Source: Candidatus Latescibacterota bacterium (GTDB taxonomy: Bacteria; Latescibacterota; UBA2968; UBA8231). From it: DNA of 64,000 nt. Shown one piece after another: positions 36,457 through 47,152 of this stretch. Position 1 is the stretch's first letter, and the number at the start of each line of letters is the position of its first letter. The DNA lies in assembly GCA_965217585.1 (NCBI GenBank), contig OZ244561.1, positions 5,696,001 to 5,760,000 of the forward strand, in the 5' to 3' direction. The notes beneath the pieces are model-generated. The model saw nothing but the letters and a program-made list of their open reading frames with translations. It ran no database searches and had not been told where the DNA came from. A program made the position numbers and the translations under genes.

Positions 36457-36485
36457 TTGACAAGCAATCCGGCATATGTTATAAT
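36457..36485 (+). promoter_or_regulatory. Consensus sigma70 promoter of the R-M/Argonaute operon (near-leaderless transcript)
   Basis: TTGACA-N17-TATAAT exact consensus, 9 nt before ATG 36495; overlapping ATATATT/AATATAT inverted repeat. Confidence 0.8.
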
Positions 36486-36494
36486 ATATCAATT

Positions 36495-38363
36495 ATGACA
36501 GACATAACAGAATTATACGATATCCCGGCCGTGTTACGCGCCATCCGCTCCCGCCTCGACCTCACTCAAGAGCAGCTCGCCGAGCGGATCGGCGTCTCCT
36601 TCGCTAGCATCAACCGTTGGGAGGGCGGCGCGATCAAGCCGCAGAAGGCAGCACAGGAGGCCATCGCCGCACTCGCTATCCAAGCGGGCGTCGATATAAT
36701 GGAGTTGGCTGCCGAGCCAACCGAAGCCGCCGTGCGCGTGACGCGGCGACGGAAAGGCAAAGGCCGTGCGGCCGTGCCTTCGACCAAGCCGATGGAGCAG
36801 ATGCTGTGGGATGCGGCCTGCTCCATCCGCGGCGAGAAGGACGCGGCAAAATTCAAGGATTACCTGCTGCCGCTCCTATTCCTCAAGCGGCTGTCCGATG
36901 TGTTCGACGACGAGATCGAACGGCTAGTCGAGGAATACGGCGAACGAGACATCGCGCTGGAAATCGCCGAGGGCGATCACGCACTGTTGCGTTTCTACCT
37001 GCCCCCGGAAGCGCGCTGGGGCGTCATCAGCGGTCGCGACAGTTATGAGTGGCCGCTCGACGACCAAGGGCGGAGCACGCAGCCGAGGGACATCGGCGAG
37101 CATCTGACAAAGGCGGTGCGGGCGGTCGCGCGGCAGAATCCCTCGCTTTCGGGCGTTATCGACTTTGTCGATTTCGCCTCCGAGCGCAATGGCGAGCGCG
37201 ACATCAACCCGGCCAAGCTCGCCGCAGTCATCGAGACCTTTTCAGATCCCCGCTATAGGCTCGGCCTCGCCGACGTGCAACCCGACTTCCTTGGCCGCGC
37301 CTACGAGTATCTGCTGCGCAAGTTCGCCGAAGGTTCCGGCCAGAGCGCGGGCGAGTTCTTCACCCCTACCGAGGTCGGTTTCCTCATGGCGCACATCATG
37401 CGCCCGAGGCCCGGCGAGGATTGCCACGACTACGCCTGCGGCTCGGCTGGCCTGCTGGTCAAGCTCGAACTCGTCGCCCGCGAACTCGACCCCACTAGCC
37501 GCGTGCCGCTCAAGCTCTACGGCCAGGAACTGCAAGCCGAGAGCTACGCCGTCGCCCAAATGAACGGGATCATCCACGACATGGAGGTGGAGATCGAACG
37601 CGGCGACACCATGATCAACCCCAAGTTCAAGACCGCGACCGGCCAGATCGCCACCCATGACATCGTGGTGGCCAATCCCATGTGGAATCAGCCGTTTAGC
37701 CCGGAACTCTTCGCCAATGACCCATTCGACCGCTTCCGCACCCAAGGTGGCGTCACCACAGGCAAGGGCGACTGGGCTTGGCTCCAGCACACGCTCGCCT
37801 GCCTGAACGAGCGCGGGCGGGCTGCGGTGGTGCTCGACACTGGTGCAGTGACGCGAGGCTCGGGTGCCAAGCACGAGGACCGAGAGCGCAACATCCGCAA
37901 ATGGTTCGTGGACCGCGACCTAATTGACGGGGTGATTCTATTGCCAGACAACCTTTTCTATAACACCAGCGCCGCCGGCGTAATCATGGTGCTGTCGAAA
38001 CGCAAGCCAGAGGCGCGGCAGGACAAGATCGTATTGCTCAACGCCAGTCGGCGCGTGGGCAAGGGACGGCCCAAGAATTTCATCCTGGAGGAGGATATTC
38101 GTCTGATTGCGGCGGCGTTTTTGAAGGGGGAGCCGGTGGAGGGGGAGGTTGCGGTGATTACGCGGGAGCAGGCGGAGGAAGCGGATTATAACTTGAGTCC
38201 GAGCCGATGGGTTTTAGGACTAGAAAACAAGGAAGTGTCTTCTGTCAGCGACCTAATTAACGAACTCGCGACGTTGTCGAGGGAACAAGCCGAGCATGAC
38301 GAAAAGCTACTCACACTCTTGAAGCCGCTAACTGATGGAAAGCTCAATGTCGTCGCCGATTGA
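36495..38363 (+). CDS. hsdM: Type I R-M methyltransferase subunit with N-terminal XRE-family HTH
   Basis: [49 protein letters not shown] (motif I), ANPMW (motif IV variant). Confidence 0.92.
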
Positions 38364-43859: not shown

Positions 43860-43869
43860 CGAGCATGTC

Positions 43870-46806
43870 ATGACCCCCCTCAACATCAGCGAAGCCACCA
43901 CCGTCCAGTTCCCCATGGTCCGTCACGCGGCCGAGATCGGCTGGACGCCACTCTCCCCACAAGATGCCCTGAGCAAACGCGGCGGAGAGGTCGGGCTGCT
44001 ATTCCGCGATGAACTTGAAGGAACACTCGGGATATTCAATCCCTGGATGACAGACGATTCTATACGCGCCGTTGTCGAACGACTTGAAGCGATCCCACCG
44101 ACGATTGAGGGCAACCGCGAAATGCTCGCTTGGCTGCGCGGAGAGCGGCAGTGGTACGACGAAGCCGAAAAGCGATCCCGACCTATCCAACTCGTCGATT
44201 TCGCTACGCCCAGCACCAACATCTTCCACGTCACTTGGGAATGGAAGCTCAAGCCACCAGCGCGAAAGGGCAACCGCGCAGACGTGATGTTCGTCGTCAA
44301 CGGCGTGCCGGTCGCCATCGTCGAGCATAAGAACCCAAAGGACGCCGACGCTATCGAGCGGGGTGTCACTCAATTGAAACGCTACGAGAAGGAGACGCCA
44401 GAGCTGATGGGGACGGCGCAACTCTTCAACGTTACGCACCTCCTCGACTATTGGTATGGCGTCACTTGGAATATAGCGCGTCGGTCCATGGCGCGTTGGA
44501 AGGAGCGGCCGGAGGAAAGCTATCGCTTCGCCGTCCAGTCGTTCTTTGAGCCGACCGATTTCCTGCGCACGCTGCGCGATTGGATCCTGTTTTACGTCGA
44601 AGACGGCGAGACGCGGAAGTCCGTGCTGCGCCAGCACCAACGCCGAGCCGTGGACCGCATCGTCGAGCGCTGCGCCGAGCCGACGAAACAGCGCGGACTC
44701 ATCTGGCATACCCAAGGCTCCGGCAAGACCTTCACCCTGCTCACCGCCGCTCGTCTGATCTTGGAACGCAAGGATGAATTCAGCACTCCGACAGTGGTAG
44801 TGGTCGTGGACCGGACGGAACTCGAAGGGCAACTCAAGGGCTGGGTTGAGCGGCTGCTCGGCGAGATGCAGCAGCAGGATATCGCAGTATGGCGAGCAGA
44901 CTCCAAGGCCGAACTGCGGGATATGCTCAAAACCGACAAGCGCGGCCTAATCCTGTCCATGATCCACAAGTTCGAGGGGCTGGAGCAAGACGCCAATACC
45001 CGCGACAACGTGTACGTATTCATCGACGAGGCACACCGCTCAGTCGCCAAGGAACTGGGCACCTATCTGATGGCGGCCGTGCCCAACGCGACGATCATCG
45101 GCTTCACCGGCACGCCGATTGACCAGACCGCGTACGGGAAAGGTACCTTCAAGATATTCGGGGTCGATGACAAGTTGGGCTATCTCGACAAGTACCCCAT
45201 TGCCGAGTCGATTAAGGACGAGACGACGCTGCCGATCCGCCACACCATGGCCCCGAGCGAAATGACGGTGCCGGCAGAGAGGCTCGACCAGGAATTCTTC
45301 GCCCTCGCCGAGATGGAGGGCGTCACCGACGTCGACGAGCTCAACAAGGTCCTCGACCAAGCCGTCGGCCTGCGCACCTTCCTCACCGCCGACGACCGCA
45401 TCGAAAAAGTTGCCGCATTCGTCGCCAAACATTTCCGCGAGAACGTGGCACCGCTCCATTACAAGGCGTTCCTCGTCGGCGTGAACCGCGAAGCCTGTGC
45501 CAAGTACAAGCGGGCACTCGACAAGCTACTGCCCCCCGAATGGACTACGCCGGTCTATACCGAGAACGCCGCCGACATCGTCACCCGCCCGCTCGTTGCG
45601 AAGTACCAGCTTTCGCCGGACCGCGAGGCAGACACGCGCCTGATGTTCAAGAAAGCGGATGCGAATCCGAAGATCCTCATCGTCACCGACAAACTGCTCA
45701 CGGGCTACGACGCGCCGCTCCTCTACTGCCTGTATCTCGACAAGCCCATGCGCGACCACGTACTCCTGCAAGCCATCGCGCGCGTGAACCGCCCTTACGG
45801 TACGCAAAAACGGATCGGCCTCGTGGTCGATTTTGTGGGCGTACTGCGCGAATTGAAAAAGGCGTTGCAGTTCGACTCATCCGACGTCAGTGGCGCAATT
45901 GAGGACCTCGATCTCCTGCTGAGCGACTTGCTCGACAAGCTCAGACGAGCGGAAGCTACCTACCTCGCCGATGGGGAAAACGGTGGCGCAGATGAACAAC
46001 TGGAGAAGCTCGTCTATGGGCGTTTTCTAGCACCAGAGCAGCGCAAGGAGTTCTTTGAAGCCTACAAGGAGATTGAGGCACTTTGGGAGATCTTGTCACC
46101 TTCGCCAGAGTTGCGCGACCACATCGAAACCTTCAGGCGGCTGGCGCGACTCTATGAGACCGTGCGCAACGCCTATGCCAGGGGCACCAACTACACGGCG
46201 GACTTGGCTAACAAAACGCGGTTTCTGGTACAAGAGAATGCTACTCAAGAAGGGCTCGGCCGTCTGACGAAGACCGTGACGTTTGACGTATCCACCCTTA
46301 AAGCGCTGCGAATCGAGCCGGGCTTGGATGAGACCAAGGTGTTCAACCTCGTGCGCGGCCTCCAGCAGGAAATCGAGAGCAACCCAGACAAAGAGTCCGT
46401 GCTGCTGCCCTTAAAGGAACGCGCCGAAAGCATCCTGAAGGAACTGGAGAATCGCAAGATGACTGCTCTGGCGGCCATGGATCGGTTAGCTGATCTTGCC
46501 GCGGAGAAGGATGCAGCCATCCGGGCCGAACGGGATAGCGGGCTATCGTCGCGCGCGTTCGCCGTCCATTGGGCGCTAAAGGACGACGCCAAGCTAAAGA
46601 TCGCTGGCATCAACACCTTAGAGTTGGCACAACGAGCGGAAACGCTTCTCGCCCGCTTTCCCAACGCGGCTGTCAACGCCGATGAGCAACGACGGCTGCG
46701 CACGGCCCTCTATGTTCCGCTGCTGCGACTGCAAAGAGACGAACGGAGCCGCGTCGTAGAGCGCATCCTCGGCATTTTGGGAGCAAGCATCGATGCGGAC
46801 GCCTGA
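43870..46806 (+). CDS. hsdR: Type I restriction endonuclease R subunit
   Basis: [18 protein letters not shown] nuclease motif, [34 protein letters not shown]. Confidence 0.95.
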
Positions 46807-47152
46807 CGAACGACGCAAGGTCATGCGCGAGCGCGTCGCATCTTGGGCACAGCGGCTGAACGTCCAGCCACGGCAGGTACGCGTGCAGCGCATGACGCGC
46901 AAGTGGGGTTCGTGTTCGACCGCGGGCGTCGTCACCCTCGCCGCCGACCTCGTCGATCAGGACTTAGGCTTTCAAGACTTCGTCATTGTCCACGAGCTGC
47001 TGCACCTGCGCGTGCCCAATCACGGCAAGCTCTTCAAAGCCTTGCTGACGGCTCACGTGCCCGCTTGGCAAACATACGCCACAGCACGCACTGCTCAGCG
47101 CACCAACGCCAAGCGCCCCACCGCGACAAACGAATCCGCCACCAAGCGATAA
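46793..47152 (+). CDS. YgjP/DUF45 (M48-like) metal-dependent hydrolase, commonly found downstream of hsdR
   Basis: KWGSCS, VHELLHL..PNH. Confidence 0.85.

Follow-up and report, generated by a model that had tools for sequence, protein, structure and literature searches.

An Argonaute-SIR2 module with a truncated Argonaute gene, embedded in a type I restriction-modification operon of a Candidatus Latescibacterota bacterium

The closest described relatives of the locus considered here are the BPAS systems, in which the gene of a long-B prokaryotic Argonaute (pAgo) is immediately followed by that of a Sir2_2 protein termed bAgaS (Song et al. 2023, Nat Commun 14:6970). As reported for GbBPAS in that work, bAgaS alone lowers the viability of E. 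coli approximately 10^4-fold, an effect which is abolished by the pAgo; the two proteins co-purify, NAD+ is depleted when a plasmid with a CloDF13 origin is present, and the system is functional in E. coli without a cognate restriction-modification (R-M) system. Long-B pAgos are described as being inactive throughout, and HsdS is one of the DNA-binding proteins listed for pAgo operons (Ryazansky 2018). PrrC and TgvAB are reported to be embedded in the type I R-M systems EcoprrI and that of V. cholerae VPI-2, respectively, and type I systems are said to hold embedded genes often (“guilt by embedding”; Payne et al. 2024, preprint). The words pAgo, SIR2, AIPR and AbiU do not occur in the main text of the latter preprint, and no title or abstract among the papers listed by the literature searches describes a pAgo-SIR2 pair as lying within such an operon; examples may be listed in Supplementary Data 1 of Song et al. 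(2023), in the embedded-gene tables of Payne et al. (2024) or in the operon tables accompanying Ryazansky (2018). The present analysis concerns a stretch of 64,000 nucleotides (nt) of a Candidatus Latescibacterota genome (contig OZ244561.1, positions 5,696,001 to 5,760,000; hereafter the window), in which a pAgo-SIR2 pair and a gene of the AIPR family lie between the hsdS and hsdR genes of a type I R-M operon.

A preliminary description of the window had interpreted these genes as a layered defence system. The best explanation of the data, to which we assign a probability of about 0.8, is instead a mobile type I R-M operon whose hsdS-hsdR junction serves as a cargo slot, the cargo in this case being a decayed BPAS, recently disabled in this strain, and an AIPR gene. 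This explanation starts from what was observed directly, namely, the truncation of the pAgo gene, the intact alleles in close strains, and the fold, family and synteny of the genes concerned. The features of the locus are as follows.

36495-38363, + strand: hsdM with an N-terminal XRE-type helix-turn-helix (HTH), 622 amino acids (aa); HTH_31/HTH_3, HsdM_N and N6_Mtase matches
38335-39537, + strand: hsdS, encoding a specificity subunit of 400 aa with two halves for target recognition; two Methylase_S stretches, Specificity_I with an E value of 2e-58
39542-40987, + strand: 5' remnant of the pAgo gene, 481 codons of a 633-aa long-B-type gene; Piwi, E value 1.3e-6, PADLOC pAgo_II, 3.4e-127
40971-42065, + strand: body of a Sir2_2 (bAgaS-like) gene without its native ATG, ribosome-binding site (RBS) and first nine codons; SIR2_2, PADLOC Aga_SIR2 class II, E value 1.3e-121
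40983-40989, no strand: deletion junction, 484-486 nt lost; its 7 bases fit both sides of the intact alleles, a short imperfect repeat
42180-43859, + strand: AIPR/AbiU-like abortive-infection gene, 559 aa, apparently intact; AIPR, E value 3.4e-39, PADLOC AbiU, 1e-45
43870-46806, + strand: hsdR restriction/translocase gene, likely start ATG 43870, reading frame open from 43756; HSDR_N, SWI2_SNF2 and T1R domains
46793-47152, + strand: YgjP-like Zn-metallopeptidase gene, 119 aa; profile match, HELLH motif present

Families were assigned by Pfam-type and PADLOC profile scans of the open reading frames (ORFs) of the window. The seven ORFs are co-directional and lie where the preliminary description had placed them (36457-47152), in the order HTH-hsdM, hsdS, pAgo, SIR2, AIPR, hsdR and ygjP-like, with families as stated there. 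The spacing between hsdS and pAgo is 4 nt, as had been claimed, that between SIR2 and AIPR is 114 nt, with a GGAG RBS preceding the AIPR ATG, and that between the AIPR stop and the likely hsdR start is 10 nt; hsdR and the ygjP-like gene overlap. HsdM, HsdS and HsdR carry the defining domains of a type I system and are apparently full length. The domains of HsdM are HTH_31 (residues 13-60), HsdM_N (100-249) and N6_Mtase (262-578; PADLOC MTase_I, E value 1.3e-147), and alignments with its relatives begin at residue 1, with identities of 66-90%. Both HsdM (90% identity to the same-genus locus L018) and HsdR (93% to the metagenome locus L086 and 91% to L018) align over their full length without stops. 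In this R-M lineage the ygjP-like gene is conserved as the final gene, following hsdR in most relatives. Membership of the AIPR/AbiU family (Pfam PF10592) is equally full length, the Pfam match reaching 135.8 bits versus a cut-off of 25 and the PADLOC AbiU alignment pairing residues 41-521 with positions 25-510 of a 537-position profile; what distinguishes this member is its place beside a BPAS inside an R-M operon. The G+C content of the operon region (0.49-0.56) is below that of its surroundings (approximately 0.62-0.65), which fits acquired DNA.

A deletion across the Argonaute and SIR2 genes

The pAgo ORF of the window stops after the residues SIGRRE, while its relatives run on for 152 further residues, and the PADLOC pAgo_II profile is matched over positions 2-470 of 617 only. 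Among the best 120 of 485 pAgo homologues, all but 8 are 627-640 aa in length, the rest being of 493-605 aa with one of 660 aa, and the closest among the matches listed is 98% identical and 633 aa long. The whole genome, complete as a single contig of 7.3 Mb, holds pAgo residues 1-486 only, in one copy. The ORF at 39542-40987 had been taken for a long Argonaute, an assignment which stands as regards long-B family and fold, as judged from intact relatives, and falls as regards completeness: the product retains the N-terminal and linker regions, MID and the beginning of PIWI, residues 482-633 are missing, and the complete MID and PIWI of its relatives are thus not encoded in the window. The part that was lost holds the longest invariant block of a 64-sequence alignment (N584-F593), the invariant W631-F632 and the nearly invariant L633, and the remnant is without half of the PIWI fold of the structural model.

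The intact state of this locus is represented by another genome of the same genus, G028, which harbors a pAgo gene of 633 codons and a SIR2 gene of 368 codons at the corresponding chromosomal position, flanked by gatB on one side and by a convergent gene encoding a beta-helix/M6-peptidase protein on the other, and which provided the only strong pAgo match among 30 other genomes of the genus. Relative to G028, the window has undergone a 486-nt deletion extending from pAgo codon 482 through SIR2 codon 9, and the pAgo frame now ends at a TGA codon (40985-40987). Contigs of public sequencing runs were aligned to positions 39600-42000 of the window. A contig of run X1 (record 3) spans 40131-41747 across the junction with 0 differences, and contigs of two other studies (X4, record 12; X8, record 18) match both sides at 98-99.7% identity; the latter two carry 477 nt between the sides, which is 484 nt more than the window at 40983/40989 and represents the intact allele, and their SIR2 part differs from that of the window at 3 positions in approximately 840-1020 nt. 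In the RNA-library run X18, the match of a contig begins with the native SIR2 5' end and is preceded by more sequence. The deletion is, therefore, real, recent and polymorphic, intact and deleted alleles occurring in near-identical strains. With the approximately 484-486 nt, which had lain between short imperfect repeats, the final 152 pAgo codons were lost together with the start of SIR2.

The near-identical intact alleles of other runs raise the question of whether a mixed population misled the assembler, the strain in fact possessing an intact gene. This is very improbable, as the short-read-derived X1 contig crosses the junction over 1617 nt without a gap or mismatch, the two forms were never seen together in one run, the gene is present just once in a genome that consists of a single 7.3-Mb contig, and the junction lies at a short imperfect repeat, as is typical of real deletions.

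Run X18 is a marine metatranscriptome, whose contigs cover parts of 40278-42000 in a relative with an intact junction; four of five such contigs are 95-99% alike and one is 90-95% alike, and DNA carry-over in the library is possible. The segments that this run leaves uncovered carry no evidential weight.

The deletion also deprived the SIR2 gene of its ATG, of its overlap-coupled start context and of the conserved N-terminal segment M(A/T)T.VFKR(D/N). Upstream, its frame extends without a stop as far as TTG 40917, and TTG 40971 is the closest candidate for an in-frame start. It had been described as a stand-alone downstream gene distinct from SPARSA; the 368-aa protein is indeed a Sir2_2 domain alone, with an APAZ fusion being absent, yet the native start and the first nine codons of the window copy are gone. 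The motifs GAGAS, SLNYD and LYKLHGS are retained, as is every invariant residue of the domain, and the NAD-site residues N161 (in SLNYD) and H205 (in LYKLHGS), which are invariant in 15 sequences, lie in motifs that align with NYD and HGS of the solved SIR2 structure 8w9l. That the frame is still open is attributed to the recency of the deletion (3 differences from intact alleles) rather than to selection.

It is conceivable that the truncated module works anew, with SIR2 being produced from an internal TTG as an orphan NADase and restrained by the N-MID remnant or another factor. The open frame, the three retained motifs, the position of TTG 40971 and TTG 40995 within 15 nt of the pAgo stop and the preserved MID pocket residues would suit such a scenario, which we nevertheless regard as quite unlikely. 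No purine-rich RBS precedes TTG 40971, a start at 40995 would cost part of the first Rossmann strand, and the conserved segment ending in VFKR(D/N) is lost. With half of PIWI, the most conserved block and the C-terminal tail gone, the pAgo remnant is unlikely to fold, and free bAgaS is reported to be toxic in E. coli. The preferred explanation is that the BPAS module of this strain is most likely dead, as predicted from its sequence, whereas the R-M and AIPR genes look intact and would be the only ones expected to work. A deletion that strikes pAgo and SIR2 together would be a safe route of loss because free SIR2 is presumably toxic, and the removal of the pAgo C terminus and the SIR2 start in one step fits the published toxicity of SIR2 alone.

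A programmed +1 frameshift from the pAgo remnant into SIR2, the frame of which is +1, was also considered and was rejected, there being no known slippery context at the GAA-TGA sequence.

Family and fold of the intact Argonaute

An initial structural model of the pAgo, derived from 12 close sequences, had a mean predicted local distance difference test (pLDDT) score of 62.4, with the C-terminal PIWI region unmodelled, and was replaced by an AlphaFold2 model of the intact protein based on the 64-sequence alignment (mean pLDDT of 91.9; predicted template modelling [TM] score of 0.89). A Foldseek search ranked the long-B Argonaute RsAgo first (E value of 1.8e-27; query TM score of 0.72), further prokaryotic Argonautes and eukaryotic ones ranking next, with AfAgo being matched at a target TM score of 0.80. 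The nearest solved chains by sequence are AfPiwi (2e-18), EcAgo of the BPAN system (7e-16) and RsAgo (approximately 1e-6). Assignment to the long-B pAgos is based on the pAgo_II profile, these nearest PDB sequences and the RsAgo-like fold.

As claimed in the preliminary description, the MID pocket is preserved: Y343, K347, Q358 and K385 are invariant in 64/64 homologues, all four being located in the retained part of the protein, and a HMMER alignment places them opposite Y123, K127, Q137 and K163 of AfPiwi, which we take to be its 5'-phosphate pocket. The long region preceding MID, for which approximately 250 residues had been given, is an N-terminal lobe of approximately 245 residues. Because intact members of the family are 632-633 aa in length, and thus approximately 100-145 residues shorter than the EcAgo (731) and RsAgo (778) chains, we suspect that the PAZ domain is reduced or absent. 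The “GIG” and “HAT” motifs, which had been interpreted as replacing catalytic PIWI residues, are present in the pAgo sequence of the window, and catalytic inactivity of the intact family is predicted by analogy from its long-B membership.

The locus resembles the published BPAS in that a long-B-type pAgo, predicted from its family to be inactive, is located directly upstream of a stand-alone Sir2_2 gene; the PADLOC class II profiles match both window proteins at E values of approximately 1e-121 to 1e-127, the fold is RsAgo-like, and the Asn and His motifs of SIR2 are present. The pairing of an inactive long-B pAgo with a separate SIR2, to which the preliminary description had referred, is therefore of a published kind. 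It differs from the described BPAS in the compact size of the intact pAgos (632-633 aa), in the frequent embedding of the pair in a type I R-M operon within this lineage and, in the window copy, in the truncation of pAgo and the absence of a SIR2 start. With SPARSA, it shares the pairing of a SIR2 NADase with a pAgo, here one predicted to be inactive, in an abortive-infection role. In contrast to SPARSA, there is no APAZ fusion and the pAgo has its own N-terminal lobe; a SPARSA pAgo appears only at rank 50 of the fold search, and the PADLOC class I profiles give 1e-4 to 1e-6, such that the locus is not a SPARSA system.

Distribution of the module and of its type I host

The association between the pAgo-SIR2 pair and the R-M genes was assessed from both sides. 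On the pAgo side, 80 loci from a genome collection were found with the pAgo alignment, among which 19 are close (at least 54% pAgo identity) and 61 are distant (30-40%); on the R-M side, the best 80 loci from Joint Genome Institute (JGI) metagenomes were found with the window HsdR (70-93% identity), tblastn matches in these loci being kept from at least 60 aligned residues. A SIR2 homologue directly follows pAgo in 79/80 pAgo loci, the exception stopping at a contig end.

The pair is nested in an orthologous R-M operon in nine of the 19 close loci (L006, L007, L008, L009, L015, L016, L018, L023 and L035), where it is co-directional between HTH-hsdM/hsdS (HsdM identity of 74-90%) and hsdR/ygjP (HsdR identity of 71-91%). 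By record title, these loci derive from about six phyla (Binatia, Nitrospira, Bryobacterales, Longimicrobiales, Latescibacterota and Caldilineaceae). No R-M gene was seen at the other 10 close loci, two of which are short contigs; the neighbors at the four that are annotated are genes for aconitase, a polysaccharide exporter, an oxidoreductase, a serpin, an amidohydrolase or a Mutator transposase. Just one of the 61 distant loci is nested, and this in an unrelated type I system (L040), with five having hsd-like genes nearby. Nested and solo loci are interleaved in the pAgo tree, in which the window pairs with L018 (support of 100/99).

Seen from the R-M side, pAgo, SIR2 and AIPR are absent from all of the best 80 loci. 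Across the 71 loci in which both hsdS and hsdR were found, 45 have no more than 150 nt between the two genes, 16 have 500-1500 nt and 10 have over 1500 nt; 26/71 R-M relatives carry other cargo in the slot and 45/71 carry none. The proteins encoded in filled gaps include AAA_21/AAA_15 ATPases, DUF3800, Schlafen-AlbA_2/HATPase_c_4 and Fic proteins. The extra cargo of the nested pAgo cassettes is likewise variable (TIR, trypsin-like, DUF3800, Schlafen-SLOG, OLD-like ATPase, TIR plus SLOG, or AIPR); AIPR occupies the same slot in L009 and L015 (77-78% identity) and is not found in the same-genus genome. The notion of the hsdS-hsdR interval as a slot for additional systems, AIPR included, agrees with these data. 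The location between hsd genes, the shared orientation and the variability among relatives are features in common with the embedded type I cargo described for PrrC and TgvAB and by Payne et al. (2024). In this case, however, the cargo is a BPAS pair plus AIPR, with no sign of sensing of R-M inhibition, and neither PADLOC nor Pfam revealed a PrrC match among the embedded proteins, which therefore do not include a PrrC-type guardian.

In a FastTree phylogeny of HsdR, the 10 pAgo-bearing cassettes and four pAgo-less ones lie on one side (support of 0.81) and 63 pAgo-less ones lie opposite. L095, L108, L128 and L134 (internal stops) and nine duplicates were omitted from this tree, in which the cargo label “?” denotes an hsdS below the stricter E-value threshold and not an absence of cargo information. 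L086, one of the four pAgo-less cassettes on the pAgo-bearing side, groups with the window and L018 (support of 1.0) yet carries different cargo.

These distributions bear on the layered system that had been envisaged, in which pAgo-SIR2, and possibly AIPR, would guard the type I enzyme in the manner of PrrC or would load restriction fragments as guides. In 7/9 nested loci, as in the window, pAgo directly follows hsdS (0-30 nt) and is always co-directional, and the confinement of all 10 pAgo-bearing cassettes, from about six phyla by title, to one HsdR sub-lineage suggests a single capture kept through many transfers. The listing of HsdS among pAgo-operon proteins (Ryazansky 2018) and the reported ability of embedded genes such as PrrC and TgvAB to complement a type I system point in the same direction. 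A layered system is nonetheless unlikely: 10/19 close pAgo-SIR2 loci are without detectable R-M, the annotated ones among them being surrounded by housekeeping genes or a transposase; 1/61 distant loci is nested; 0 of the best 80 HsdR loci carry pAgo, SIR2 or AIPR, L086 with its 93% identical HsdR and other cargo included; GbBPAS is reported to be active in E. coli without a cognate R-M; and, in the window, the module is broken while the R-M genes are intact. The claims that the layered system works in this strain, or that pAgo-SIR2 guards the R-M complex or uses its products, are thus not upheld. The preliminary description had named as refuting evidence a lack of enrichment of pAgo-SIR2 inside type I R-M loci together with independence from the R-M genes; a lineage-specific association does exist, but it is not obligate.

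A related possibility applies to the intact cassettes alone, in which BPAS might be wired to the type I enzyme, with HsdR fragments or stalled translocating complexes serving as guides or triggers, or with BPAS firing upon R-M inhibition. Such wiring, which is also a doubtful proposition, would explain why one HsdR sub-lineage keeps pAgo-SIR2 after hsdS across about six phyla, and the natural deletion allele would then constitute a ready-made loss-of-function control. Nothing that was found requires cross-talk among R-M, BPAS and AIPR. Each of the two modules, BPAS and R-M, also exists without the other, and there is no sign of mutual dependence. The sequences are most consistent with a cargo slot, BPAS having been acquired downstream of hsdS by a single R-M sub-lineage that has since carried it between phyla, the cargo apparently being swapped and lost freely.

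Damaged BPAS copies are present in 2/10 nested cassettes, namely, those of the window and of L015 (Binatia). In L015 (11917-12639 and 12364-12573), SIR2 is cut to 240 aa, and downstream of it lie an AIPR fragment, genes of the TIR and SLOG families and a complete AIPR gene; judging from its sequence, this is a second, independent decay of an embedded BPAS, in SIR2 rather than in pAgo. Two further arrangements were noted among the retrieved loci. A solo pAgo-SIR2 pair of Binatia (L012), which is sister to a nested locus, has a ygjP-like remnant (14037-14306) approximately 1 kb after SIR2 and no hsd genes, which evidently means that the R-M frame can be lost around the module. In the Anoxybacillus-group loci L083 and L084, pAgo is split (5245-5820 and 10001-11278), approximately 4.2 kb separating the upstream part (residues 4-196) from the downstream part (residues 214-633), which is suggestive of an insertion.

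Several points weigh against the proposed decayed-cargo explanation. The SIR2 frame is otherwise intact with all invariant residues kept, the in-frame codons TTG 40971 and 40995 lie near the pAgo stop, such that re-initiation may yield some SIR2, and the 481 retained pAgo residues contain the entire MID pocket; loss of function is itself deduced from sequence. Run X1 may be the sample behind the genome assembly, in which case its proof of the junction is not fully independent. The predicted inactivity of PIWI is argued from family. The split in the HsdR tree has a support of 0.81 only, and the comparison of frequencies is weakened by the use of two collections, pAgo-bearing loci having been drawn from genomes and pAgo-less R-M loci from JGI metagenomes.

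Taking the proposed explanation as a whole, the type I R-M operon, comprising HTH-HsdM, HsdS, HsdR and the YgjP-like peptidase, would move horizontally, its hsdS-hsdR junction acting as a defence-gene slot that here received an abortive-infection gene of the AIPR/AbiU type and a BPAS, the latter consisting of a Sir2_2 NADase and a presumably inactive long-B-type pAgo. Homology with GbBPAS suggests that the Argonaute of intact copies keeps SIR2 in check, and guide-directed recognition of invader nucleic acid would trigger NAD+ depletion by SIR2, resulting in cell death or arrest. Through embedding, the module would gain the operon promoter and travel with the R-M genes, which presumably cut unmethylated DNA, with AIPR adding a further abortive-infection function.

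Promoter, flanking genes and implications

The features at and beyond the borders of the operon are as follows.

32526-33683, - strand: intact AAA_14/DUF4143 ATPase gene, 57% identical paralogue of the 126-aa fragment below
35608-36123, no strand: “ghost” of an earlier cassette end, consisting of a spacer match and the left copy of a 239-nt repeat
36087-36467, - strand: N-terminal fragment of an AAA_14 ATPase, 126 aa; AAA_14 7-99 of 129
36457-36485, + strand: sigma-70-type promoter TTGACA-N17-TATAAT with TG before the -10 element; 12/12 consensus match
47024-47262, no strand: right copy of the 239-nt direct repeat, comprising the ygjP 3' end and the 3' end of the convergent beta-helix/M6-peptidase gene; repeat comparison

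The exact promoter that had been noted ahead of hsdM is the only 12/12 match among 6 promoter-like sites in the 13 kb from 35000 to 48000; by our own estimate, which covers both strands and assumes equal base frequencies, an exact promoter with a 16-18-nt spacer is expected approximately 0.005 times per 13 kb. It ends 9 nt 5' of the hsdM ATG, which implies a very short leader. A TTGACA sequence is present within 70 nt upstream of hsdM in 31/55 unique relatives, while a regular-expression search for the strict -35/-10 pair matched 0/47 upstream regions of relatives; in 46/55 relatives the codon aligned with the window hsdM ATG is not ATG, such that the promoter geometry differs there. Transcription of the operon in intact cassettes probably starts at the promoter ahead of hsdM, the genes presumably being co-transcribed.

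Between TTGACA and the hsdM start, a palindromic box, TGYNATATNRCA, was detected in 22/55 unique relatives (upstream of hsdM in L087-L161) versus 3/1100 control windows, and positions 36470-36500 of the window contain a related inverted repeat, TGTTATAAT-N6-ATTATGACA, over the -10 element and the hsdM ATG. The box and the inverted repeat are candidates for an operator recognized by the HTH fused to HsdM, and this XRE-type HTH, conserved from residue 1 in relatives, is a candidate autoregulator.

The two copies of the 239-nt repeat are 93% identical and bracket the operon. Within the ghost segment, positions 35608-35875 match the SIR2-hsdR spacer of the same-genus locus and 35885-36123 represent the left repeat copy, hsdR and the 5' part of ygjP being missing between them. 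The presence of such a cassette end beside the operon looks like the outcome of rebuilding of the locus by recombination. The AAA_14 fragment is cut off at the repeat and abuts the hsdM promoter; as a possible trace of a donor, it was sought upstream of hsdM in 160 fetched loci; none was found next to hsdM, and one weak, unrelated match was obtained in L116.

Just upstream, at 33990-35578, a gene for a GmrSD_N (DUF262) protein (PADLOC NsnA, E value of 2e-64; PD-T4-2_A, 2e-51) overlaps that of a RiboL-PSP-type HEPN protein. The two likely form a separate two-gene defence system, as suggested by their profile matches; the pair is absent from the same-genus locus, in which gatB abuts hsdM. A second patch of low G+C content (0.535) just past the beta-helix gene holds genes for a NUDIX hydrolase (50427-52132, - strand) and an N6_N4 DNA methyltransferase (52841-54268, - strand), followed by a Pup-ligase gene.

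The implications concern both the strain and the family. The strain holds an intact type I R-M system with AIPR and a freshly disabled BPAS, and not a working three-layer system. The module (BPAS) and its setting (the embedded type I R-M slot) each belong to a known kind; their combination, a compact 633-aa long-B Argonaute-SIR2 pair travelling within one type I R-M lineage, provides a concrete case of embedded defence. As a natural polymorphism in which one deletion takes both the C terminus of the Argonaute and the start of its toxic partner, the locus also suggests a safe route by which such modules may be lost.

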